Below are positions 1,724-43,413 of a DNA stretch of 64,000 bases, one piece after another (within the stretch, counting starts at the first letter, position 1; every line of letters begins with the position of its first letter). The DNA comes from Candidatus Saccharimonadota bacterium (GTDB lineage Bacteria > Patescibacteriota > Saccharimonadia > QS-5-54-17), in NCBI GenBank assembly GCA_050486185.1, contig JBJHCT010000001.1:82216-146215 (forward strand). Direction: 5' to 3'. A program made the position numbers and the translations under genes. Below the pieces are notes generated by a model. That model was not told where the DNA came from. It searched no databases and worked only from the letters and a program-made list of their open reading frames with translations.

Positions 1724-2953
1724 ATGCTCATGCATAACGACGATCCAGTGGTTGAGTTGAGGCCCTCTAAGTCTAGGAATTTTACCCTAGCCTCAGTAGT
1801 AGCTATAGCCATATTAGTTGGTTCTTTGGGTTTTGTCCTAGGAGCTAATATCAATCAACTAAGCGTAGGTCAATATGATAGTGAAAATGAACACCTACCA
1901 GAAAAACTAGACTATTCCTCAGTAGATAGATTGTACGATCTCTTGCGCCAAAACTATGCCGGAGAGTTGAATTTAGAAGATTTAATGCTAGGTCTCAAAC
2001 AAGGCTTAGTTAGTGCCACGGGGGATCCTTTCACCGAGTATCTAACATCAGAAGAAGCCGAGGAGTTTCGCAGTAGTTTAAACGGCGAATTTAGTGGTAT
2101 CGGTATTGAGATCGGTATTAGAAATAACCAGCTGGTAGTAATCGCTCCCATAACTGGCACTCCGGCCGATAGAGCCGGTCTAAGGGCTGGAGACAAGATA
2201 CTAGCTATAGATAGCGAAGATACTACAGATATGAACCTACAGACAGCGGTAAGCAGTATCAGGGGGGATGAGGGTACGGATGTAGTGCTGAGCATCGGTA
2301 GAAACGGAGAAGATATTCAAGACATCACCGTCACCAGAGGCTTAATAGAGGTCCCTAGCGTTGAAGCAGAGATTTTAGAGGATGGTATTGGTTATATACG
2401 TATTAACCGTTTTGGCGATCATACGGCTAGAGATTTCCGCCAGGCTGCAGCTGGGCTTACAGATGATGGAGTTAGCAGGATAGTGTTAGATATGCGCAAT
2501 AATCCAGGTGGATATTTCGATGCGGCTGTAGCTGTAGCTAGTGAGTTTCTAGAAACTGGAGAAGTTGTGGTTGAGGAAAGACGAGGAGGTGACGTGATTG
2601 CCACTGAACGCGCTAGGAGTAGCGGCAGCCTAATAGGTTTAGAGGTAGTAGTTCTAGTGAATGGTGGTTCAGCTAGTTCATCAGAGATTGTAGCAGGTGC
2701 CCTAGCAGATCATGAAGTAGCTGTAGTCGTTGGTGAACAGACTTTTGGCAAAGGTAGTGTGCAACAGTTAGTAGATGTTGGTGATGGTAGTATGCTTCGA
2801 GTAACTATAGCTAATTGGTATACTCCCAAAGGTCTTAATATTGGTGACGGTGGTATTACCCCTGATGAGGTAGTGGAGATGAGTCAGGAAGATTACGATA
2901 TGGATCGTGATCCACAGCTTCAAAGAGCTATAGAGATATTACTCAACAGTTAA
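1724..2953 (+). CDS. C-terminal processing (tail-specific) S41 peptidase with PDZ domain
   Basis: N-terminal transmembrane anchor. PDZ segment GIGIEIG...ITGTPADRAGLRAGDKILAID. S41 catalytic-region motifs LVNGGSASSSEIVAGAL and FGKGSVQ. Confidence 0.8.
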   Translation: MLMHNDDPVVELRPSKSRNFTLASVVAIAILVGSLGFVLGANINQLSVGQYDSENEHLPEKLDYSSVDRLYDLLRQNYAGELNLEDLMLGLKQGLVSATGDPFTEYLTSEEAEEFRSSLNGEFSGIGIEIGIRNNQLVVIAPITGTPADRAGLRAGDKILAIDSEDTTDMNLQTAVSSIRGDEGTDVVLSIGRNGEDIQDITVTRGLIEVPSVEAEILEDGIGYIRINRFGDHTARDFRQAAAGLTDDGVSRIVLDMRNNPGGYFDAAVAVASEFLETGEVVVEERRGGDVIATERARSSGSLIGLEVVVLVNGGSASSSEIVAGALADHEVAVVVGEQTFGKGSVQQLVDVGDGSMLRVTIANWYTPKGLNIGDGGITPDEVVEMSQEDYDMDRDPQLQRAIEILLNS

Positions 2954-3057
2954 ACCTTAGGGTCTATAGATTCCTGCATTCAAAAATACACTAAACCACC
3001 CCTATTCTCAGCTTTATGTTAATATAGCTGTGTAAGAATCAAAAGAGGAGAGTTGTT

Positions 3058-4653
3058 TTGGCGTCTAAAGATACGAAATACATATTCGTAACAGGTGGAG
3101 TGTTGTCTGGGGTAGGCAAGGGCATTACAGCGGCTTCTATCGGCAGCATACTCAAAAGCACCGGCCTGAGTGTCAATATTCAAAAATGCGATCCATATCT
3201 CAATATGGATGCCGGTACGTTAAATCCAGCTGAGCATGGCGAGGTGTTTGTAACTGCTGATGGGGCTGAGACCGATTTAGATCTAGGCCATTATGAGCGG
3301 TTTTTAGACCAAGAGCTCAACAAGCACAGCTCCTTAATGAGTGGCCGCATACTTAATAGAGTCATCAAAGCTGAGCGAGCCGGTAAATATTTGGGTAAAA
3401 CTGTTCAGATAATTCCGCATGTTACCGACACTATACAGGATGAAATAGAGAAAGCTTCAGAAGGCTATGATGTCCATATTGTCGAGATAGGTGGCACGGT
3501 CGGGGATTATGAGGGCTTGAGTTTTATAGAAGCTATTCGTGAGTTTAAACAACGGGCGGGTAGAGAAAATGTGATGTATGTACATGTGGTATATATGCCT
3601 TACGTGCGAGCTTCTCGAGAGGTCAAGACTAAGCCGGCTCAAAACGCCGTTAGGATTCTTCGAGGCTACGGTATTAATCCAGACGTCTTAGTGGCTAGGA
3701 CTGAGGAAGAGGTCAAAAACGGTATATTAGATAAATTAAGTATGTTTGCTGATGTACCAAAGAGCGGTATCTGTATAGCTCCAACTGTTAGTAGTGTCTA
3801 TGAAGTGCCTTTGATTATGGATGGTATCACCAAGCATTTAGCCACCAAGCTGGGTCTAGAGCTTGGTGATATTGATCTCAAACACTGGAAGAAAGTTATA
3901 TCAGCTGCCAACAACACTTCTTTACCAACTGTAAAAATTGGTGTGGTGGCGAAGTACATGGATCATGAAGATACATACATGAGTGTTTTTGAGGCTGTTA
4001 AGTCAGCTGCCTGGAATGAAGGTTTGAGTCCGGAAATAGTTTGGATAGATGCCGAGAAGGCCGAGAAGAGACTACCTATAAAAGAGTTAGAAAGCTTAGA
4101 TGGTATTGTGGTTCCAGGTGGCTTTGGGTCAAGAGGAGTCGAGGGCAAGATCAGGGTAGCTGATTGGGCAATGAACAACAACAAACCATATTTAGGGCTG
4201 TGTCTAGGCATGCAAGTAGCAGCTATAGCTTTAGCACGTAAGGCGATCGATAGCTCGGCTAATTCTACTGAATTTGATTCTAGTACCAACTGCCCAGTCG
4301 TGAGTTTGATGGAAGAGCAAGAAGATGTGGTAGACCTAGGAGGTACTATGCGACTAGGTAATTGGGAATGTCATCTTGAGCCCAGCTCTATAGTCAGGTC
4401 TCTATATCGAAAAGATGTAATTCTTGAAAGACATAGGCACAGGTATGAGTTCAATAACAAATACAGACAACAACTGGAGTCTGCCGGTATGGTTTTCTCA
4501 GGACTATCTCCAGATAAGAGGTTAGTAGAAGTTATAGAACTAAAAGATCACCCATTCTTTGTGGCTAGTCAGTTCCATCCCGAATATACCTCTAGACCAG
4601 GTAAACCAAATCCGTTATTTAAGGGTTTTATTAAAGCCGCTAAAAGTAAATAA
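3058..4653 (+). CDS. pyrG: CTP synthase
   Basis: TTG start preceded by AAAGAGGAGAG. N-terminus YIFVTGGVLSGVGKGITAASIG. C-terminal glutamine amidotransferase region GLCLGMQ. Confidence 0.95.
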   Translation: MASKDTKYIFVTGGVLSGVGKGITAASIGSILKSTGLSVNIQKCDPYLNMDAGTLNPAEHGEVFVTADGAETDLDLGHYERFLDQELNKHSSLMSGRILNRVIKAERAGKYLGKTVQIIPHVTDTIQDEIEKASEGYDVHIVEIGGTVGDYEGLSFIEAIREFKQRAGRENVMYVHVVYMPYVRASREVKTKPAQNAVRILRGYGINPDVLVARTEEEVKNGILDKLSMFADVPKSGICIAPTVSSVYEVPLIMDGITKHLATKLGLELGDIDLKHWKKVISAANNTSLPTVKIGVVAKYMDHEDTYMSVFEAVKSAAWNEGLSPEIVWIDAEKAEKRLPIKELESLDGIVVPGGFGSRGVEGKIRVADWAMNNNKPYLGLCLGMQVAAIALARKAIDSSANSTEFDSSTNCPVVSLMEEQEDVVDLGGTMRLGNWECHLEPSSIVRSLYRKDVILERHRHRYEFNNKYRQQLESAGMVFSGLSPDKRLVEVIELKDHPFFVASQFHPEYTSRPGKPNPLFKGFIKAAKSK

Positions 4654-4758
4654 TTAATTAGCTATAAATAAAAATATCCCAAGGCGTAGGGGTAGAGCTG
4701 CTGCTGATGGTCGAAATTATCCGACCTAGAGCAGATACCCCCAGCCTCAGGAAGTTCA

Positions 4759-4956
4759 TCACCTCGACAGCAGTGCCGATCCGCTGCCACGGCTCTTCGT
4801 CGAGCTGGTGGTGGCCAAGCTGCCGTTGATCATGTCCAGGCCCGACTTGAGTTCAGGCCTCTGCTCAACGGCATCAGCAGCACTCTTCGCTTCACCACGA
4901 TTGATCATGCGAACGATCGCTCGGGCTGCCGTAACCGGCTTCTTGGTTTTTGACAT
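4759..4956 (-). CDS. Small (65 aa) basic Ala/Ser/Arg-rich protein encoded in a GC-rich island, translationally coupled to the upstream 609-aa gene
   Basis: An AGGAGA RBS overlaps the upstream TGA stop (aggagATGAcATG). GC-rich third codon positions are unlike neighbouring genes. No recognisable family. Confidence 0.45.
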   Translation of the reverse strand: MSKTKKPVTAARAIVRMINRGEAKSAADAVEQRPELKSGLDMINGSLATTSSTKSRGSGSALLSR

Positions 4957-4957
4957 G

Positions 4958-6787
4958 TCATCTCCTGATGAGAGACTCTCTGGCTATGAATACCAGAGGG
5001 TGTAGTTGGCTCGGTTTCAGTCTGTCGATGATCTCCTCAACAGCTAATAGGTTTTTATCCTCAATGGGGCCATCTTGCATCGATGACTGCCATATTAACT
5101 GAGAGGGAAATAGCTTGGCAAGGTAACGTGCTAAATTTACTCTACCATCTTTTCGCCAAGTTGCATAGTGATTAAGGTACATCGCCCCTATGGCAAATTC
5201 CGGATGACAGTACTCAGAAGTAGTATCAACCATACCTTGCTCATGGATACTGGATAGTGACACTAAACTTTTGCTGTATTGATCAGTCATAATTACGAGA
5301 GGCAGCATCTCGATGTAGCTATAGAACTTTTCTCTTGCAGAAGAGTCATAACGTATTTGCTGACAGATACTCTCCCAGGCCGATTTAAATAGCTCAACAT
5401 ATTTATCGTCTAGATCTTTTTGGCGTTTTTCATAACCATAATCTCTGACATCTTGTTTATTTTTGTAGAGTTTTTCCGCTTCAGATACAGCTTCGGTTAC
5501 TCTCATATCACCAGAAATATCTTCATACATAGCAATAACCATAAACTCAAATACATGCGATATATATTTTTTTAATATATCACTGTCTTTTGACTCAGGA
5601 TCTAGTATTTCGAATCCTCTGGTAGCTATTGATAGGATTGTTTCCTCCAGAGACTTCATTAGTAATTGAGGATTGGTGTTAATATTTTGCTCAGCAACCT
5701 CTGTTATTTGAGTGCGATTATCTCCTATATACCTAAAGCATTCAGCAAATCTTTTGTAGAAGTTAGATATAAGAGTATCTATACTGACATTTGCAACAGA
5801 ACTATTATTTTCGGGCTGCTTTAGTTGTTGGTATATTTTATCTATCTCTTCCTTGTTGATGGGAGTAGCGGCAAATATTAGCGAATAAGGATCTATCTGT
5901 ACCCAGTGCTCATCGCCATTGTCTATACGAGCCATAACACTGTGATGGAAGCTTTCCCTTCGGTGACTGCCTTGAAGTTGCTTGGGTGGGTCGAAGAAGG
6001 TATTAATAGCTGGTTCTTCTTCGACATATAGATCATTTATAAGCTGAATCTTATCGATAGTACTTAATACTTCTTGTCTTTGGAAAAATTCAGGAGCAAT
6101 TCGAGATAGATAGGCTACTATGTCCTGATGTCGTTCGGCTATAGTACCATCACTATACTTAATTTCGTTGGCAAACATATAGTCTAAACCCAATTCTTCG
6201 CAGGCTGCAGAAACAGCAATTGTTATACCTAAGCAATTGACGTAGTCACCATTAGGCCACTGACCGACTCTTACAGGCGAGGGGGATTCAGGGTCTTGTT
6301 CTAAATCTGTAATATTAATCTCATTATCTGCGATTTCAGGATGATGTTCGTGCCAGTTAGCACTATGCGTTAGTAAGTAGATAGCAAAAATAGATGCAGA
6401 AGTATCTTCAAGGCCAGGATTATTTTCTACTATTCTATCCTTAAAGTAATAAAAGTCCTCAGTTTGAGTTAGGTTTCTAGCTTTATCTATTAGAGACCTG
6501 CCAAGAAGTCTAACTTTAGCTATATTGACGATATCTTCATAACTGTATTCATCTGCTCTAGGTGGGCGTATAAATTCTACTTTGGCGATAGGGTCTTCGC
6601 AGTGGTATTCCTCTTGCTGTTCGGAATTAGTTATGGCGTCTTGATACTCTTGAACAAGCTCATGTATATGGGTGTCGTCGCAATGGTAATCTTCATCCAG
6701 AGCGCTAGAATAAGCCTCTTGCAATAGCTGATCAAACTCCACATTAGTATCTAACTCCGGCCTTCCGGCAATAGTTTCAAAACTCAT
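4958..6787 (-). CDS. Hypothetical 609-aa acidic cytoplasmic protein with no recognisable family
   Basis: Long uninterrupted ORF with host-like codon usage. No motifs I can assign. Confidence 0.6.
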   Translation of the reverse strand: MSFETIAGRPELDTNVEFDQLLQEAYSSALDEDYHCDDTHIHELVQEYQDAITNSEQQEEYHCEDPIAKVEFIRPPRADEYSYEDIVNIAKVRLLGRSLIDKARNLTQTEDFYYFKDRIVENNPGLEDTSASIFAIYLLTHSANWHEHHPEIADNEINITDLEQDPESPSPVRVGQWPNGDYVNCLGITIAVSAACEELGLDYMFANEIKYSDGTIAERHQDIVAYLSRIAPEFFQRQEVLSTIDKIQLINDLYVEEEPAINTFFDPPKQLQGSHRRESFHHSVMARIDNGDEHWVQIDPYSLIFAATPINKEEIDKIYQQLKQPENNSSVANVSIDTLISNFYKRFAECFRYIGDNRTQITEVAEQNINTNPQLLMKSLEETILSIATRGFEILDPESKDSDILKKYISHVFEFMVIAMYEDISGDMRVTEAVSEAEKLYKNKQDVRDYGYEKRQKDLDDKYVELFKSAWESICQQIRYDSSAREKFYSYIEMLPLVIMTDQYSKSLVSLSSIHEQGMVDTTSEYCHPEFAIGAMYLNHYATWRKDGRVNLARYLAKLFPSQLIWQSSMQDGPIEDKNLLAVEEIIDRLKPSQLHPLVFIARESLIRR

Positions 6788-6876
6788 AATCCATATACTA
6801 TAAAATATTTATATAAATTAGTCCACCTATTAAACACTTGCGCTAAAGTGACATAAGCGCTAGGATTAAATACAAG

Positions 6877-7272
6877 ATGGATATAGCAGGAACCAAAAAA
6901 ACCAAAAAGAAAATCCTTTTAGTTGAGGACGATACTGGGCTAGCCTCAGTTTACCAAGCTAGGCTAGAGGCCGAAGGTTTTGAGGTCTATCACTGCGACA
7001 ACGGCGAGTCAGCTTTAAGTGATGCTATTAAATACCAGCCAGACCTAATATTACTAGATGTGATGATGCCTAAAATCAGCGGCTTTGATGTATTGGATAT
7101 CTTGCACAACACTCCAGAGACTAACGGTATCAAAATTGTGATGCTAACAGCCCTATCACAAGATAGCGATAAAGAGCGAGCTGAAGAGCTAGGCGCAGAT
7201 GATTACTTAGTTAAGTCGCAAGTAGTTATAGCTGATGTTATCTCTCGCATCAAACATCATTTGAATATGTAA
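6877..7272 (+). CDS. Stand-alone response-regulator receiver (REC) domain protein
   Basis: LLVEDD...LILLDVMMPKISGFDVL...KIVMLTA...LGADDYLVKS, with no output domain. Paralogous to the REC part of 51779..52636. Confidence 0.8.
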   Translation: MDIAGTKKTKKKILLVEDDTGLASVYQARLEAEGFEVYHCDNGESALSDAIKYQPDLILLDVMMPKISGFDVLDILHNTPETNGIKIVMLTALSQDSDKERAEELGADDYLVKSQVVIADVISRIKHHLNM

Positions 7273-7407
7273 AGTAACCATCAGATATAAGCATCTATAG
7301 GGGAGTAGGCTGTTTTTTGGTTGGGGCAACTAAGTTGACATTATGTAAAACTTATGCTAATAATATAGACATCAATTAAATCTAAAAATAAAAAAGGAAA
7401 TACAAAT

Positions 7408-7677
7408 ATGTCAGAGCTAATTACTCACGTCCCAGGTTTCGAATCAGACGATCATCAAAATCAACCCTCTGTAAATGAAGGGCGAGTAACAGAAGTAGAC
7501 CTATCGGAAGCAGATAAGGCTAGAATTAAGGCCAGAACTTTGGATGGTGAGAATATTATGCGGGCTGCCGCAGATAGCATTGCTGTTAATAAAGAACAAC
7601 TCGTTCTAGATGCCTCAGAGGATCAACCTGAAGGCGATCAACCCGAAATCATAACAAATGTACCTAGGGCTGAATAG
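7408..7677 (+). CDS. Hypothetical small acidic protein
   Basis: ORF only, co-directional with the FHA gene downstream. Confidence 0.35.
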   Translation: MSELITHVPGFESDDHQNQPSVNEGRVTEVDLSEADKARIKARTLDGENIMRAAADSIAVNKEQLVLDASEDQPEGDQPEIITNVPRAE

Positions 7678-7704
7678 ATAACTTGAGTCAAGGGAATTAA
7701 TGAA

Positions 7705-8382
7705 ATGCCTAAACATGAACGTAAACCAAGTACAGATACTGAAGATCAAAGCTACCCAGATGAATCTCTGAGTCGCTTAGCTGCTATGCGCCATGAAGCT
7801 GGGCAGAGAGTATATGAAGATGTTACTAGGCAGTTACAGTCTGATCGAAACCTGGAAGTACGAAAATTAGAGAGCAAGACTTCTTTTAGTTTTGACTCAG
7901 AAAAACATGGCTTTGCAGCGAGCTCAGAAAATGAAAGCAAGGGTGTGTTCCAAAGATTAGCTATGGTAATTAGAGCCGGGAACCAGATGTTTGCGGTTTC
8001 AAAAATAGAAGTTCAGGGCGAGTCTTTATGGGGTATATCAGTAGTCGGCGAAGGTGACGACGATAGAGCAAGATTTATAGCTCCTTTGCGACCTTTAGAA
8101 TCTCAAAACTCTACTGCTACATACTCTTTTGGTAGGGAGTTTTTAGGGGAAGTATCTAGTAGTAATCCAGACATGAGCAGTAGGCATTTTAATATATTTG
8201 TAGGTAGCGATTCGCAAGAACCAAGAATATCGGTAATGGATATAGACTCCACTAATGGAACCTATATTGCTACGAAGGCAACCGAGTCAGATCCAAGCAA
8301 GAATACAGCCCCTATCAGTGAGAGTTTGAGATGGTCGGTTCCGTCTGATGAGCTAATAACCCTAGTTGGCTCAGAAGCTTAG
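7705..8382 (+). CDS. FHA-domain protein
   Basis: C-terminal FHA-like segment RHFNIFVGSDSQEPRISVMDIDSTNGTYI (S-x-NGT signature). Confidence 0.55.
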   Translation: MPKHERKPSTDTEDQSYPDESLSRLAAMRHEAGQRVYEDVTRQLQSDRNLEVRKLESKTSFSFDSEKHGFAASSENESKGVFQRLAMVIRAGNQMFAVSKIEVQGESLWGISVVGEGDDDRARFIAPLRPLESQNSTATYSFGREFLGEVSSSNPDMSSRHFNIFVGSDSQEPRISVMDIDSTNGTYIATKATESDPSKNTAPISESLRWSVPSDELITLVGSEA

Positions 8383-28637: not shown

Positions 28638-29422
28638 AGACCCTAGGGCTTTGTTTAAAGTTTAATGGGGTGTTAAATGATCGGTACACCTCTTCTCCTC
28701 ACTTCTCTATTCTGTTCGGTTTACGTTCGATAAATATCTATAATAAAAAAGATAACAAAAAACATATTTAAAAACTTAAAGTCAAACATTGTCAAATATA
28801 TAGGGAAAAGAGTAGTAGAGGATAGGAGGGTAGTGTTGTCAAATGCAAACATGACACTATAGCATTTGGTGCTAGGCTGTGGACAAATGATGTAAATTTT
28901 ATGACGTAAGATTATCTAGGTAGCTAGTTGTTAGGCTTAGTAGGCTTAAGAAGTGCTTATATTATATATAAAAGTTTATATGAATGTATTAGGGAGTCTT
29001 ATAAAACATTTATTAGTAAAATCTTAGTAAAACCCCTTAAAGCCCCCTATTAGCAAGGTATCGATAGTCACAAGAGTTATAAAAAACTCTATGTCGCAAA
29101 AGGTACATTGTGCGACGTAGTGTCTATATCAAAGTAGGGACCACTCTATCACCAAATGTCTATGTAATTTTTTATTTTAAAACGTTTGTTACTACATTCC
29201 TCTAAATTTTGTTTGTCTCTAATTTATTTTTCACACACTTTCCTAGCTCACGTGTGTCTATGTATTGGTATTTGCCTAAATTTAATTAATCTTTAATTAT
29301 TGGTTAATTTGCGATGGATTCTATATTTTAGCTGTATTAGTTAATTACGTACAAAAAACGAACATAATTAATTTCAGTGTAAATTGATCGTTAATAAAAG
29401 AGAGAAGTGCAAGTTGATGTGT

Positions 29423-30805
29423 TTAGCCTATACGGTAACGGATGATGACAATGCCGGAGCCGCCATTGCCGGCAACGGCTCCGCGACGACCACCACCCCC
29501 GCCTCCACCGGTGTTTGCCGCCCCATTGCCACCAACAGCCGCCCCTCCACCACCTTCTCCACCTAAGCCTTGCGACCCGCCGTACGAAGCGCCACCACCT
29601 CCACCTCCACGTGCGGTTGCTACTCCGGTAATAGAAGAGGTTAGACCTGCTCCTCCGTCACCACCCTTCGCACTTACGCCGTTCTGTCCCGCTACTCCTG
29701 CGCCACCACCTCCACCGGTAGAATAGTTGGATGATACTGCGTTACCACCGTTCGTACCCTGCCCAATAATGCCAACACCTCCGGTGGCCCCAGTGTTACC
29801 ACCACCACCGCCCGAGCCTCCTTGTGCGTTGCCCCGTTGGGAGCCGTCGCCTCCTTGTCCACCAACAGAAGTGATGGTCGAAAAGCTTGAGTCGCTCCCG
29901 TTGAATCCAGACTCTCCTCCGTTAATACCCCTTGATCCACCGGCACCGACGACGACCGTATGAACACCTTTGCTGATAAAAAATAATGGTTCGGCGACAG
30001 ATGAACCGCCAGACAGCTCACCCACGACAGCACACCGATAACCGCCTGCTCCACCACCTGCCGCAGAAGCGCCATCAGACGAGTCCGCTTCGCCACCCCC
30101 ACCCCCACCGATAACTAGATACTCAACCTCACCAGCGCCAGTAATAACCTCAAAAGATTGTGATGATCCAACTGTTGTGAAGTTATGTATACGGTAGATC
30201 TTGCCATCTATCTCTTCTTCGAAAACTTCATCTCCCCCTGTAGCAAAAAGAGACTGGATAAGTAGGCCGTTTTCGGTTAATACCCACTCATTCTGGGCCC
30301 TTTTTCTAAGTTGAGTTTCACCATACTTTCTAACAAAGTAGTATGGACCAGGAGCAAGAGGGCTTTTGGTACTAACGTTTTGGTTAGCGGTAACGGCTAG
30401 CTTGGCTTCATTATCTCTATATAGAGAGATTTTAGATCCTATCTCAAAGTTAGCCTCACTATCTTGGGGTACTTTAATGGTTACTACTTTGTTCTCATCT
30501 TCATCATCTAGGGTCAGGACTTTGCCAGCATCCTCTAGTGCTAGGGTGTATTCGTTGTTTATATCAGGAGTTAGAGCTTTTTCTTGGGCTATCTGGGTTT
30601 GATTAACACTTTCTTGGGTAGCTAATTCTGTAGGGTCAATTCCAGCTACATTAACACTACCATCAGCATTCATAGTGATTTGTGGGTTTACAGCATCAGG
30701 ATGTTTTAAAGACTTAGCATTTACACCACCTGAAGCATCCAACTTAATATTAGGCTCATTTGAGTCTGGATGCTGAATGTCATTGACTCTTAGCTTACTA
30801 CTCAA
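29423..30805 (-). CDS. Glycine-rich fibre/adhesin-like protein (N-terminal QHP..ADGSV repeats, central beta-rich region, about 200-aa poly-Gly C-terminal domain)
   Basis: N-terminal repeat shared with 18579..18872. C-terminal GGxGGxGG tracts resemble glycine-rich phage minor-tail or fibre domains. Last gene of a co-directional four-gene module. Confidence 0.55.
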   Translation of the reverse strand: MSSKLRVNDIQHPDSNEPNIKLDASGGVNAKSLKHPDAVNPQITMNADGSVNVAGIDPTELATQESVNQTQIAQEKALTPDINNEYTLALEDAGKVLTLDDEDENKVVTIKVPQDSEANFEIGSKISLYRDNEAKLAVTANQNVSTKSPLAPGPYYFVRKYGETQLRKRAQNEWVLTENGLLIQSLFATGGDEVFEEEIDGKIYRIHNFTTVGSSQSFEVITGAGEVEYLVIGGGGGGEADSSDGASAAGGGAGGYRCAVVGELSGGSSVAEPLFFISKGVHTVVVGAGGSRGINGGESGFNGSDSSFSTITSVGGQGGDGSQRGNAQGGSGGGGGNTGATGGVGIIGQGTNGGNAVSSNYSTGGGGGAGVAGQNGVSAKGGDGGAGLTSSITGVATARGGGGGGASYGGSQGLGGEGGGGAAVGGNGAANTGGGGGGGRRGAVAGNGGSGIVIIRYRIG

Positions 30806-30895: not shown

Positions 30896-33544
30896 CTACT
30901 CTTCCCTTCTCAATTTAACCACCTTGCCATGCTCTATAGTGTTATTATTTGTCTTTTTGGTGGGTAAACCTCCCTTATCATTTACACCTTTGTGATTATT
31001 CCCCCTGTTATGCCTGTTATTGTTCTGGTGGGTATTGTGTCGATTATTCTTGCCATTACCTTGCCTATTGTTGTTTTGCTGATTGTGCTGTTGGTTTGTA
31101 TGCTGGTTACTAGTTACATCTGCCCAGGAGCGAATCTCTGCTTCTACCTCTGCTCTAGAGGAGCTAAAGCTTCTAGAGTTTTCGATAATCTGCGGTATAA
31201 AATCTCCCGGTACCTCAGGGGTTTTAAGTGAAGTAGCGGCAAATGAAGAAACCTTCTCACCATCTATACTCATACTAATTACAAAGTGGCGGTTGTTGAG
31301 TTTGACTAGATCCTCTCCCTCGAAGGTAGGTGCGAAGTATTTAGCTAAATACGGAGCATCATCAGCACTGACCCTGAAGGATATAATTGTGCCTACGTTA
31401 CCAAATACAGCATCTCTGACCTCTTGAGACATCTGAGAGATGTATTGGTTGGCTATAGTTAGGTTTAATCCATATTTCCTAGCTTCAGATAAGATAACAG
31501 CAAAGGAATCAGTAGCGAAGTTCTGGAACTCATCGACGTATAGGTTAAAGGGCCTCCTATTCTCAATACCAGGTATATTAGCTCTACTCATGGCGGCTAA
31601 CTGGATTTTAGTCACCATCAGCGAGCCTAATGTAGCAGCGTTATCCTCTCCTACCTGTCCGCGTGATAGATTAACTATGAGGATCTTACCCTCATCCATC
31701 ATCTCCCTGATGTTGAAAGCGCTTTTAGGCTGCCCTATGATGTTTCTCATCAATGGATTAGCTGTAAAGGCTCCTACCTTGTTTAGAATCGGTGCTACGG
31801 CCTCTGAGGCGAACTTATCGTTCCAAGAAGCAAACTCATTAACCCAGAAGTTTTTCACTACTGGATCCTCAATACTATCTATGACTTTTTGACGATATCC
31901 CTTCTCGGTTAACATCCTAGTAATCCCTAGTAGTGTGGCGTTAGGATAGTCTAATAAGGCTAGAATGGTATACCTGAGGATATATTCTAGTCTTGGACCC
32001 CAAGAGTAGCCAAACATGCGCTTCAAAGACCCTACCACTTCTGATGATATATGTCCCTTTAAGCTTGGATCGGTGACTTCAAGGGGGTTAAAAGCTATGG
32101 GGTACTCAGTATCAGCTGGATTAAAATAGACTACGTCCTTAACCCTATCTTCAGGGATGTAGCGCAAGATATCGTTGGCAAAGTCACCGTGTGGATCAAT
32201 TACGGCAAACCCCTGATCATAGTAGACGTCAGATAGGGCTAGAAGTAGCATCAGGTGGGATTTACCGGTACCGGTTTGTCCTACTATATAGGTGTGTCTA
32301 CCTCTATCGCTTCTTTTGAGTCCGAACTGTCGGTGTTGACCCCTGAAGTTAGTTACTCCTATAGTGCTGAGTTCTCCGGGTTCAACTAGTTGCGGTGTAG
32401 GTATATTCGATGGCGGCTCAGCAGTTTTACTCTGAGCCCATATCATACTCGGAGTCTCAACATTGGCATGTGGTAGGTGATAAAGGCTAGCTAGTTCCTC
32501 AATATTTAGAACAAAACCTTTGTCCAAAAAGACTCTGGAGCGATACCGGCGCAAAGCCTCCTCTTGATAGTAGTGCTTTTTAATTTTGAAACTGTTGGTA
32601 TTATCATTAAACTGTTTGAAAGCACCGACCAGGGCCTGAATTCTCAGTCTAGATAGGTTTTTGTCGTTGCCTACATGACAAAGTCTAATACTAACTTCAT
32701 AACCGAGCTTTGAAATTTTGTCATTAACTCCTTGGACCATGGCTTTTTGTTGATCGGATAACTCTGCTGGCCCACCTTTTTCTCCTGCTTCTGGTGGTTT
32801 CCAGATAGCGATGAATAAATCATGAATTAACTTCTGTAACCCTCCTAAGAAACCCTCAAAACTCTTGCCGCTACTGCCATTTCGCAGTTTATTAATAAAG
32901 GTCTCTCCCCGTTTATGCCAGCTATCTTCCAGGGGTCTAGCCATAATCTGAATCCAAGCTTGTTCATTTTCTTCCTCTAGTTTTGATAGTACCGCTGTAA
33001 TACCGCCCAAAGGATCGACCTCGAAGCTGTTAAAGGTGCGTATCGGTAGAACGTCGCTATTAGTTAACCCTAACTCCACAGAGTGAGCTTGAACTTCTTC
33101 ACCAAACTCTTTACGGGAATAATCCTCTTCAACCTCAACGATATTAACACTAGGATACTGGGCGTAAACCTGTCCCTCTACGAAGTTACGTAAGTGTTTA
33201 GGAGTCCAGATAAAGAATCTAATATGCTTATCAACAGAGACGATTTCAAAGCTGATATGTTCTTGCAAAGCCCCTTCTTTAAGCAGTTCTTGTCTAGGCC
33301 TTAGGATTCCGTGCAGACTGGCAAATAGCTGCTCGGCTGATAGCTCAGCCTTGTCGTTCTCTCTAGGTACTTCCAGTAGTAGTAGTGAGTACTGGCTATC
33401 ACTCACCCACTTCTGCTTGCGTATGTTTTGCCAAATCAGAAAAGCTAGGACTATAACGATAACTATCCAGCCTCCCCAGTCGAAGATTAATCGACCCAAG
33501 AACTGGATAATAGTAAACAATACTTCAAAAACAATATTCATCAC
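30896..33544 (-). CDS. Membrane-anchored P-loop NTPase of the HerA/FtsK/VirB4-TraG (AAA_10/DUF87-like) class with a C-terminal Q/N/H-rich low-complexity tail
   Basis: N-terminal transmembrane helix. Walker A YIVGQTGTGKSHLM, followed by AVIDPHGDF as in HerA/VirB4-type ATPases. Walker B NLYVDEFQNF, then TIANQ. About 70 aa of N/Q/H-rich tail. Confidence 0.55.
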   Translation of the reverse strand: MMNIVFEVLFTIIQFLGRLIFDWGGWIVIVIVLAFLIWQNIRKQKWVSDSQYSLLLLEVPRENDKAELSAEQLFASLHGILRPRQELLKEGALQEHISFEIVSVDKHIRFFIWTPKHLRNFVEGQVYAQYPSVNIVEVEEDYSRKEFGEEVQAHSVELGLTNSDVLPIRTFNSFEVDPLGGITAVLSKLEEENEQAWIQIMARPLEDSWHKRGETFINKLRNGSSGKSFEGFLGGLQKLIHDLFIAIWKPPEAGEKGGPAELSDQQKAMVQGVNDKISKLGYEVSIRLCHVGNDKNLSRLRIQALVGAFKQFNDNTNSFKIKKHYYQEEALRRYRSRVFLDKGFVLNIEELASLYHLPHANVETPSMIWAQSKTAEPPSNIPTPQLVEPGELSTIGVTNFRGQHRQFGLKRSDRGRHTYIVGQTGTGKSHLMLLLALSDVYYDQGFAVIDPHGDFANDILRYIPEDRVKDVVYFNPADTEYPIAFNPLEVTDPSLKGHISSEVVGSLKRMFGYSWGPRLEYILRYTILALLDYPNATLLGITRMLTEKGYRQKVIDSIEDPVVKNFWVNEFASWNDKFASEAVAPILNKVGAFTANPLMRNIIGQPKSAFNIREMMDEGKILIVNLSRGQVGEDNAATLGSLMVTKIQLAAMSRANIPGIENRRPFNLYVDEFQNFATDSFAVILSEARKYGLNLTIANQYISQMSQEVRDAVFGNVGTIISFRVSADDAPYLAKYFAPTFEGEDLVKLNNRHFVISMSIDGEKVSSFAATSLKTPEVPGDFIPQIIENSRSFSSSRAEVEAEIRSWADVTSNQHTNQQHNQQNNNRQGNGKNNRHNTHQNNNRHNRGNNHKGVNDKGGLPTKKTNNNTIEHGKVVKLRREE

Positions 33545-42543: not shown

Positions 42544-42790
42544 GCTAGCTCTATATCAATTCTATTCTTTAAATCTACCTCTTTGATTTAATCTGTAATT
42601 TGCCCTGCTTGGTCCATTTAGAATTAGTGCCTTCAGAGCCTTGGCTAGTTGCTGCAATCTCACCTTGTTGAGTTAGTTTACGCCTATTTAACGTAACCTT
42701 ACTCCACTTACCTTGTTTGAGTACATATTTACTGTTTGCCATTATCTTATTTTAACATCTAGCAATTAATAAATCAGTTACTAACAAATA

Positions 42791-42863
42791 AAGTTTAGTC
42801 AGGTGGGGCGATGCGTTCAAGGGTCTCTGCAAGGTTGCCCCCGCTTGAGCATACTTGAACGCA
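42791..42863. repeat. Long imperfect inverted repeat (20/21-nt arms, 32-nt spacer) at the edge of a GC-rich island
   Basis: GGTGGGGCGaTGCGTTCAAG ... CTTGAACGCAaCCGCCCCACC, read directly from the sequence. Sits just 3' of the minus-strand gene 42888..43277. Confidence 0.6.
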
Positions 42864-42887
42864 ACCGCCCCACCTAGTGACCACTCA

Positions 42888-43277
42888 TCAGGGTATTGAA
42901 ACCCTCAGTTCCACAGGCTCCCACCTGCTCTGATCAGGCACCCACTGCAGGATCGGCCCCTTGGTCTGATCCATCAGGAAGCGCAGGAAGGGGTGGTTCG
43001 AGAGGACCTTGACCCAACCCTGAGGGATGCAGGTTGCCTCGATTTCATGAAGAACTCGAGCAGCCCCATCGCCCACGTATGTGGACTTCTTCAAGACCTT
43101 CAAGCAGTCCTGGTAGAAGCCATCTTCATGGGCGCAACAGGAAATCCTGTTGGTCGTGACCCGAAGGTCTTGTGTGAAGACGATTGGATGGAGGAGATCC
43201 CATCCCAGCCGTATCTTGAGCAGGTCAACTGCCTCGAGATCTTCGGCAACGTCCTTGCTGATAAGTGCTTTGGGCAT
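42888..43277 (-). CDS. Hypothetical 129-aa protein encoded in a GC-rich island, likely horizontally acquired
   Basis: About 57% GC with GC-rich third positions, against about 43% for neighbours. No recognisable motifs. Confidence 0.45.
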   Translation of the reverse strand: MPKALISKDVAEDLEAVDLLKIRLGWDLLHPIVFTQDLRVTTNRISCCAHEDGFYQDCLKVLKKSTYVGDGAARVLHEIEATCIPQGWVKVLSNHPFLRFLMDQTKGPILQWVPDQSRWEPVELRVSIP

Positions 43278-43413
43278 ATTCTGCCTTCTTTTCTCCCGCT
43301 ATCACCGAGTTGCGATAACAGATGATATTTTGCAATATATTAATATAGAAATCAAGCACTTAGACGGTAATATAAATGGCTTTGTGTGTCTGTTTATACT
43401 AAACTAAAAATCT

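Follow-up and report, generated by a model that had tools for sequence, protein, structure and literature searches.

A rare gene cassette combining a predicted transglutaminase-fold enzyme, a GSG-tailed small protein and a GC-rich hairpin in a Saccharibacteria genome

We analysed a stretch of 64,000 nucleotides of contig JBJHCT010000001.1 from a Candidatus Saccharimonadota bacterium (hereafter the window, which always means this whole 64-kb stretch), and within it two neighbouring minus-strand open reading frames (ORFs) of 609 and 65 amino acids (aa). The initial annotation had described the larger one as an orphan gene of native appearance and suggested that it had recently been joined, by insertion or fusion, to a small gene of foreign appearance. 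Our results indicate instead that the two genes, followed by a GC-rich hairpin, form a rare and conserved accessory cassette whose three parts always occur together. The large gene is predicted to encode an enzyme of transglutaminase fold, and the small gene, which is translationally coupled to it, a protein ending in a conserved Gly-Ser-Gly (GSG) tail. On balance we lean towards the view that the small protein is a dedicated substrate of the enzyme; most likely, the enzyme acts on this tail or is gated by it. The cassette comprises the following features.

4958..6787, minus strand: large gene, 609 aa, a new sequence family assigned by its predicted fold to the transglutaminase/papain-like superfamily, with added helical domains.
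5783..6277, minus strand: predicted transglutaminase-like catalytic core of the large protein, residues ~171-335; candidate triad codons for Cys185 at 6235-6233, His281 at 5947-5945 and Asp299 at 5893-5891.
4961..5230, minus strand: C-terminal block of the large protein and its best-conserved part, residues ~520-609 (E-x-x-x-PEFMIGAMYLNHYATWRKDGRxNxA ... PSQLIWQ ... HPLV), with many columns at least 90% conserved in alignment A1 (see below).
4962..4966, minus strand: Shine-Dalgarno (SD) sequence AGGAG of the small ORF, 5 nt 5' of its ATG, read directly.
4759..4956, minus strand: small partner gene, 65 aa, pI 11, with a basic conserved N-terminal block, a Ser/Thr-rich linker and the C-terminal tail RGSGSALLSR.
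4677..4752, minus strand: long imperfect GC-rich hairpin, 6 nt past the stop of the small ORF, followed by AUAUUUUUAUUUAU (~4676-4662) and facing the end of pyrG.

The coupled genes and their products

The junction of the 609-aa and 65-aa genes reads aggagATGAcATG. Along the minus strand it consists of AGGAG (4966-4962), A, the stop codon TGA of the large gene (4960-4958), C and the start codon ATG of the small ORF (4956-4954), the stop of the first gene sitting between a consensus Shine-Dalgarno sequence and the start of the second. A second, independent assembly, a Logan contig of run SRR31311414, was identical to the window over 1847-7166 and spanned both junctions. This rules out an assembly chimera, and the cassette arrangement is therefore not an assembly artefact. 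The ORF coordinates, the coupled junction, the island of about 60% GC and the composition of the small ORF were all as the initial annotation had described them.

We then turned to the family to which the large protein belongs. Neither protein and neither of the two family alignments gave a credible match in Pfam, NCBIfam, PHROGs, PADLOC or the PDB sequences, and a k-mer-prefiltered search of 5.8 billion proteins recovered nothing beyond the query, whether this was the 65-aa ORF, the 609-aa ORF or the alignment of the large-protein family (30 sequences, A1). An exhaustive phmmer search of 1.84 billion cluster representatives, in contrast, produced 47 homologues of the 609-aa protein, most of them 570-600 aa long and matching over their full length, with 24-37% identity and E-values down to 7e-74. 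The singleton result of the k-mer search was therefore a false negative. The family is nevertheless rare, with 47 clusters among about 15 billion proteins, and it is known from uncultured organisms only. The description of the large gene as one without a recognisable family thus stands as far as the curated libraries are concerned, which were empty for both proteins, but not beyond them, given the 47 uncurated homologues and the transglutaminase-like fold described below. Some of the long C-terminal extensions in database entries of family members probably arise where the region of the small ORF, GC-rich and poor in stops, is read through in another frame.

Positions invariant in A1 are P76, G96, P171, P178, C185-L186-G187 (within N-C-L-G), H281 (within F-H-H), Q297-x-D299-P300, E525 and Q563. 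A single-sequence AlphaFold2 prediction of the 609-aa protein was unusable, with a predicted local distance difference test score (pLDDT) of 36; with A1 as input alignment, the model reached a pLDDT of 84.4 and a predicted template modelling score of 0.86. In this model Cys185 lies at the N-terminus of helix 185-198, His281 starts strand 281-289 and Asp299 ends strand 293-299. This layout corresponds to the geometry of a transglutaminase/papain-like catalytic triad, and all three residues are invariant in the 30 sequences. Around the core, the predicted architecture comprises an N-terminal helical region, a helical insert of about 95 residues between the Cys and the His, a helical bundle (~337-512) and the conserved C-terminal block. 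The latter, residues ~520-609, was modelled at pLDDT > 90 and matches no known family.

The fold assignment found no counterpart at the sequence level. No transglutaminase model (Pfam Transglut_core and related curated families) matched the window protein or the 30 family members at E <= 1, and the A1 profile compared with the PDB sequences gave helical-repeat noise only. Foldseek matches of the model in the PDB were not significant (E > 0.1), the same transglutaminases recurring among them, and a fold search of BFVD returned no match. The model, whose structural similarity to solved superfamily members was judged significant, thus places the 609-aa protein in the transglutaminase/papain-like superfamily at fold level, outside every curated sequence family, with the predicted fold and the invariant residues of enzymes that carry out thiol acyl transfer or hydrolysis.

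We next examined the region downstream of the large gene in all distinct loci for which such sequence was available. These are 12 in number: the window and L083, L084/85/90, L086, L087/88, L089, L091/93/94, L096, L098/99, L100, L101/102 and L103. L096 is cut by the contig end, and the complete loci are 11 including the window. A homologue of the small ORF was present downstream of the large gene in all 12, starting 4-18 nt past its stop or overlapping it. Overlaps were seen in L086 (7790-8008), where the small ORF uses a GTG start and overlaps the large gene by 14 nt, and in L098 (6730-6918), where the overlap is 59 nt. A purine run resembling a Shine-Dalgarno sequence was found 5-10 nt 5' of the start in each of the 12 loci, AGGAG, GGAGG or AAGGAG being clearest in most.

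The products of the small ORFs are 62-83 aa long and homologous across loci (alignment A2). They begin with a mostly basic N-terminus, continue with a block of the form sAA.kI..mI..G.A..A.DAv...PeL..G, and then enter a Ser/Thr/Pro/Ala-rich linker of variable length. The proteins are basic (pI 9-11 in 9 of 11 loci) and about half of their residues are Ala, Gly, Ser, Thr or Pro. In A2 the AA pair is invariant, as are the G and the S of GSG. The tail GSG[PST]A[LI]LSR stands at the extreme end of the protein in seven loci and reads GSGPVLLSR in L089; three more divergent loci end in GSGPARLTR, SGPARLER and GSGPAITELHW, and L103 in GSGTVVHSRIG, with 5-8 residues after the GSG. The tail is the most conserved element of the small protein, and it hardly changes even where the enzymes have diverged to 25-30% identity.

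In pairwise codon alignments of the small ORFs, differences followed the order third > first > second codon position in nearly all pairs, and the conserved tail was written with varying synonymous codons, including switches between AGC and TCN serine codons. Together with the Shine-Dalgarno-like runs in all 12 loci, this indicates that the frame is protein-coding. The small ORF is thus a real gene, as had been supposed, and has a Shine-Dalgarno sequence of its own where the large gene stops; the refutation initially envisaged, a frame unconserved or without coding signal in relatives, does not apply. It is an old protein-coding partner under purifying selection, and the pairing of the two genes is ancient. 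A conserved antisense ORF was ruled out as well: stop-free antisense frames are expected in GC-rich sequence, and they occurred in no consistent frame.

GC-richness of the small gene and the terminal hairpin

The small gene lies in an island (4661-5000) whose GC content peaks at 60.5% in 200-nt windows, for a 64-kb mean of 41.9% (standard deviation 4.9); a comparable GC content is reached in just two further stretches of the 64 kb. The 65-aa ORF has a GC content of 58.6%, with 0.68 at third codon positions (GC3), and the 609-aa gene 39.0%, with a GC3 of 0.33. The same contrast was observed in every locus, with the small ORF some 15-23 GC points above the large gene in hosts of 35-58% GC, and with the large gene everywhere slightly AT-richer than the host locus. 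The profile is also shared: all 11 complete loci show a GC content that starts to climb over the final ~100 nt of the large gene, is highest across the small ORF and drops past the hairpin. Along the small ORF itself the excess is uniform.

The expected GC3 was calculated by resampling synonymous codons from the local codon usage with the amino-acid sequence fixed. The observed value exceeded the expectation in all 12 loci (z 2.2-7.1); in the window, it was 0.68 for an expected 0.37 +/- 0.06 (z = 5.4). As the excess persists after synonymous resampling, it is not explained by the Ala/Gly/Pro/Arg-rich composition of the small protein. GC-richness is therefore a family-wide trait of the small gene and not a sign of foreign origin. 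Moreover, this contrast must be maintained, because no recent transfer from a GC-rich donor can account for its presence in every lineage, and the excess left by an old one would by now be gone.

These results bear directly on the proposal that a native orphan gene recently gained its small neighbour from a GC-rich donor by insertion or fusion. In favour of it are the step from 39% to 58.6% GC inside one operon and a weak similarity between residues 1-32 of the small protein and a ParB-like protein from a Mu-like phage contig of 65% GC. This contig, L082 (IMG/VR UViG_2843432611_000004), carries at 4389-8148 a transposable phage segment encoding a ParB_N-like protein, a MuA-type transposase and a MuB-like AAA ATPase, and the string RGEAKSAADAV is common to the ParB-like protein and the small protein of the window. 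We rejected the match as an indication of origin: it goes back to an exact seed of 8 residues among 2.9 million contigs, covers 22-32 residues and has an hhalign probability of only 34.5% against the family profile. In our judgement the match is due either to chance, biased by the seed, or to a short helical motif that both proteins share. Searches of phages and plasmids with the island DNA gave chance-level matches only. As the same pair with the same GC contrast recurs in 12 of 12 loci, the probability that remains for a recent joining of native and foreign genes is close to negligible.

In genomes that are AT-rich, a GC-rich island is often the mark of an RNA gene. The island might accordingly be read as a structured non-coding or dual-function RNA in which the 65-codon frame is incidental, and the minus-strand transcript of 307 nt indeed folds with a z-score of -4.8, while the synonymous GC excess points to some constraint at the nucleotide level. 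The folding signal nevertheless comes from the terminal hairpin. For the small ORFs, folding energies were equal to those obtained after synonymous permutation of the codons (z from -2.6 to +1.35, with a mean near -0.6), and the region of the Shine-Dalgarno sequence and the start codon was no more paired than its surroundings. There is therefore no sign of specific structure within the small ORF; neither an internal RNA structure as the cause of the GC3 excess nor a sequestration of the translation start is supported. The Rfam scan suggested initially, made with Rfam 15, revealed no RNA family, even at E <= 10, in the window or in 10 related loci: 4400-5300 gave chance-level matches only, and in the related loci only tRNAs reached the gathering score. 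Frame, Shine-Dalgarno sequence, start and C-terminal peptide motif are conserved while the nucleotides vary, and an RNA element with an incidental frame is extremely unlikely.

What maintains the synonymous GC excess may be thought of in several ways. With low confidence, we suggest that it protects the distal part of the mRNA from AU-directed RNases. In combination with the 3' hairpin, this would yield more small protein than enzyme, as in operons with differential segment stability. Other ideas are that locally rare GC-ending codons slow translation, or that GC-biased gene conversion is at work.

The hairpin downstream of the small ORF has a folding energy of -48.5 kcal/mol (z -6.1) on the minus strand and -36.9 kcal/mol (z -4.3) on the plus strand, and it is the second strongest of the 64 kb, low-complexity coding sequence aside. 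Each of the other 10 complete loci likewise has a comparable hairpin, which starts 2-25 nt past the stop of its small ORF (z -3.05 to -7.7). Many of these have a long outer stem around a smaller inner hairpin, with unrelated sequences, and a U-rich tail is clear after only some of them. In 19 Saccharibacteria relatives folded downstream of pyrG, no comparable hairpin was detected, the strongest being that of L002 (-26.6 kcal/mol). Being present after each small ORF and having no such counterpart after pyrG in relatives, the hairpin must travel with the cassette.

The simplest reading is that of a strong intrinsic terminator or a 3'-end stabiliser; in the window, a GC-rich hairpin followed by a U-tract is seen at the 3' end of the operon, as intrinsic terminators would have it. 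Convergent terminators for both pyrG and the operon had been suggested in the island. A strong terminator-like hairpin of the operon, facing the end of pyrG, is indeed there, but it is not the native terminator of pyrG, a role ruled out by the relatives whose pyrG lacks it and by the cassettes elsewhere, each of which has its own hairpin. An integron cassette with an attC site was also rejected, as no GTT/AAC core of the sites RYYYAAC and GTTRRRY was found at the base of the hairpin on either strand and no integrase nearby.

Two other GC-rich regions of the window were noted. The island 42781-43280 (55-60% GC), which also looks foreign, contains a 129-aa ORF (42888..43277, minus strand; GC3 0.68) that has no match in Pfam, PHROGs, NCBIfam or PADLOC and no tblastn match in phages or plasmids. 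The strongest hairpin of the window (~42803-42880, -58 kcal/mol, z -6.7) lies downstream of it. This layout of a GC-rich small ORF with a hairpin is as in the cassette, and the sequences are unrelated. The GC maximum of the window, up to 65% at 29381-30180, corresponds to a glycine-rich domain (Pfam Gly_rich_2, E 4e-22) at the C-terminus of a 460-aa protein (29423..30805, minus strand); it results from the composition of poly-Gly coding sequence and is no foreign island. The adjoining gene (30896..33544, minus strand) encodes an 882-aa TrwB/TraG-like type IV coupling protein; it is part of a type IV secretion/conjugation-like region without relation to the cassette.

Genomic setting of the cassette

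The source genome belongs to the Saccharibacteria (TM7) and has a GC content of 42%; the best matches of its pyrG among species-representative genomes are Saccharibacteria metagenome-assembled genomes, with 56-67% identity. Comparison of neighbouring window proteins with related loci by tblastn revealed a conserved backbone in which ctpA and pyrG precede a receiver-only response regulator; beyond a variable stretch come L27 and another three genes. The regulator comes immediately after pyrG in 17 related Saccharibacteria loci, and no relative of the 609-aa or the 65-aa protein is encoded in these loci. In the relatives folded, the spacer between pyrG and the regulator is mostly a few tens of nucleotides long, reaching ~134 nt in L002. 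Because the two genes adjoin in 17 relatives without the cassette, the whole unit 4654-6876 was inserted, and not just the small ORF. The initial annotation had pointed to a divergent regulator gene at 6877; it is adjacent and divergent as stated, and it belongs to the conserved backbone, outside the cassette. The features concerned are the following.

4654..6876: lineage-specific insertion of 2,223 bp between pyrG (3058-4653, plus strand) and the receiver-only regulator gene (6877-7272, plus strand), cassette-free in 17 relatives.
6788..6876: divergent spacer of 89 bp between the large gene and the response-regulator gene.
6825-6797, minus strand: promoter-like candidate for the cassette, TGGACT-17-TATAGT, from a consensus scan only.

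Elsewhere the cassette was found in at least eight distinct gene contexts. Three related contigs share the same BipA/DEAD-helicase context around it, and in L097 it adjoins an RHH-PIN pair. In L098 (4729-4810) and L101 (3725-3808), both with a PEGA/sortase context, the cassette is preceded, at a distance of about 190 nt, by a tRNA gene; this tRNA-proximal site may be an integration hot spot, and no integrase was seen there. No recombinase was linked to the cassette, and searches of IMG/VR and of phage and plasmid collections with DNA and protein queries revealed no cassette relatives; the small-protein alignment was too variable for a pattern scan.

Two further observations concern the surroundings. 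In L092 (1620-3983) and L093 (468-5004), genes for a MoxR-type AAA_5/AAA_3 ATPase (481 aa) and a 305-aa ORF lie upstream of the large gene, whose start is overlapped by the 305-aa ORF; L093 also has a divergent 708-aa VWA protein gene near the cassette. In the window, the stretch between the regulator and L27 (7273-8395) contains an 89-aa ORF and a 225-aa ORF with an FHA domain, neither of which has a counterpart in ~20 related Saccharibacteria loci. In these relatives the regulator-L27 spacer varies from 0.3 to 6.8 kb, a second variable spot beside the cassette.

Possible mechanisms and known systems

The mechanism that we favour would run as follows. The large gene would produce a cytoplasmic enzyme of about 600 aa with an invariant Cys-His-Asp triad, and the small protein would be its dedicated partner. 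The N-terminal block of the latter would dock on the helical domains of the enzyme, with the linker as a tether, and its tail would interact with the most conserved part of the enzyme, namely the active site and the C-terminal block. The tethered GSG tail would then enter the active site at Cys185, to be cleaved or, through a thioester intermediate, transferred. At the level of the transcript, which may end at the long GC-rich hairpin, the GC-rich coding sequence and this hairpin could stabilise the distal mRNA relative to the AT-rich enzyme gene, so that the small protein would be made in excess.

We prefer to see the tail as a substrate because the chemistry of this fold is thioester hydrolysis or acyl transfer to amines, as in LapG, transglutaminases and NAT/GdmF. 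The preference is drawn from gene linkage, the pattern of conservation and this known chemistry. Several points weigh against the mechanism: as regards mRNA stability, folding energy is unaltered by synonymous permutation and the translation start is unsequestered; several hairpins are without a clear U-tract; and no transporter, ligase or target gene is consistently linked to the cassette in the fetched neighbourhoods. In addition, best matches against labelled loci were uninformative as to the taxonomy of most other loci.

A more specific and quite unlikely version of the same chemistry would be a minimal, ATP-independent tagging system. The enzyme would attack the GSG, free the C-terminal peptide and move the thioester-bound small protein onto an amine, which might be a target protein's lysine or belong to the cell wall or the host surface. 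This would amount to conjugation of a sortase-like or ubiquitin-like kind that makes use of a transglutaminase fold, with GC-rich recoding and the hairpin supplying the tag in stoichiometric excess.

The main rival is that the tail inhibits the enzyme. The two genes would then form a toxin-antitoxin-like or protease-inhibitor pair, in which the free enzyme is harmful and the tail of the small protein blocks its active site as a pseudo-substrate, while the basic N-terminal block might bind DNA. Staphostatins block staphopains, and the C-terminal tails of antitoxins block toxins, with a tail or segment placed across the active site; the conserved tail would suit the most conserved part of the enzyme as an inhibitor no less than as a substrate. 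The cassette also has the architecture of a type II toxin-antitoxin system (two-gene, translationally coupled, mobile and accessory), although this alone is insufficient. It is tightly coupled, was inserted between conserved genes, has no constant neighbour through its eight or more contexts and encodes a basic small partner about half made of Ala, Gly, Ser, Thr and Pro; in L097 it stands beside the RHH-PIN pair. A toxin of 600 aa would nevertheless be unusual, and Pfam revealed no antitoxin DNA-binding domain. PADLOC gave no defence or toxin-antitoxin match, the large protein having only a 16-bit similarity (E 0.0017) to TIR-TM over a helical stretch and the small protein none. Furthermore, the neutralising segments of antitoxins tend to change quickly in evolution, whereas the tail in question is almost the same in enzymes of only 25-30% identity, and the BipA/DEAD-helicase context kept in three related contigs suggests stable vertical inheritance rather than addictive mobility. 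We regard inhibition as possible but unlikely. Very unlikely, in our opinion, is a system like those for peptides synthesised ribosomally and modified after translation (RiPPs), in which the small ORF would be a precursor, the enzyme a leader or follower peptidase comparable to lasso B2 and the product a short bioactive or signalling peptide. The predicted transglutaminase-fold cysteine-enzyme core would agree with it, as would the combination of a recognition-like block, including P-x-L-x-x-G, with a conserved C-terminal segment in the small protein. Strong hairpins beside precursor genes are also common in RiPP clusters. In the fetched loci, however, no called neighbour gene has a cyclase, dehydratase, radical-SAM or YcaO domain and no transporter is consistently linked; no RiPP recognition element (RRE) or PqqD domain was detected. 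The lasso leader motif YxxPxLxxxG...T is unmatched in spacing, there is no Thr at -2, and 62-83 aa with a long low-complexity linker are atypical of a precursor.

Should the favoured mechanism hold, this would be an uncurated pair of families with a near-invariant tail that is a candidate for a new mechanism of peptide processing, tagging or self-inhibition. The enzyme represents a new sequence family of a known superfamily; its obligate GSG-tailed partner, the hairpin and the synonymous GC enrichment were not found described in the curated libraries or the literature searched. The cassette would also be a counter-example to the heuristic that equates a GC island with horizontal transfer, GC-richness being kept in every host. 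This conserved GC-richness points to selection on the nucleotide sequence of the small ORF, with mRNA stability, the speed of translation or gene conversion as the route. Rarity and uncultured hosts limit the immediate impact of these results. Orphan calls made in candidate-phyla genomes by k-mer-prefiltered search merit an exhaustive HMMER check.

Several known systems resemble the cassette in part. In staphopain-staphostatin operons, a gene for a cysteine enzyme is likewise followed by a co-transcribed gene for a small cytoplasmic partner, which may lie substrate-like in the active site. Staphostatins differ in being folded beta-barrels of ~105 aa, while the partner in the cassette is of low complexity with a conserved tail and shares no homology with them. 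Pup and ubiquitin-like modifiers are also small; like the small protein, they combine a largely disordered chain with a conserved Gly-containing C-terminal motif, and they stand beside an enzyme class that forms or breaks amide bonds. Pup and ubiquitin end in GG(Q/E) or GG, whereas the GSG is followed by 5-8 residues; no PafA/Dop- or E1-type ligase was found in the neighbourhoods, nor a beta-grasp fold or sequence similarity in the small protein. A leader peptidase B2 and its precursor in lasso clusters offer another likeness, that of a transglutaminase-fold cysteine enzyme beside a small peptide with a conserved recognition segment (see PMC9266682 on lasso biosynthesis). Unlike these clusters, the cassette is linked to no macrolactam synthetase (the Asn-synthetase-like C protein), RRE (B1) or exporter, and its small protein is longer than lasso precursors and has its conserved site at the extreme C-terminus.

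On the enzyme side, the L092/L093 subgroup with its MoxR-type ATPase, 305-aa gene and VWA protein resembles the MoxR-DUF58-transglutaminase operons of Actinobacteria (PFNA cluster, PMC8430577). Most cassettes, that of the window included, are without the MoxR, 305-aa and VWA genes, the 305-aa protein has no DUF58 match, and a GSG-tailed small partner is not reported for the transglutaminase-like proteins of the PFNA cluster (PMC8430577). Arylamine N-acetyltransferases (NATs) and amide synthases such as GdmF, to which no sequence similarity of the large protein was detected, differ further: NATs are ~280 aa long and work with acetyl- or malonyl-CoA, and they are not known to have a dedicated small-protein partner. 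At fold level, the closest known systems are the relatives in the Pfam Transglut_core clan, among them the putative cysteine protease of PDB entry 3isr, S. pyogenes TglA (9crn), LapG (4fgo), TG2/TG3 and PNGase. The large protein departs from this clan in matching no Pfam or NCBIfam profile and in the insert of ~95 residues between Cys and His, and it adds large helical domains, a highly conserved C-terminal block and a constant pairing with a small protein.

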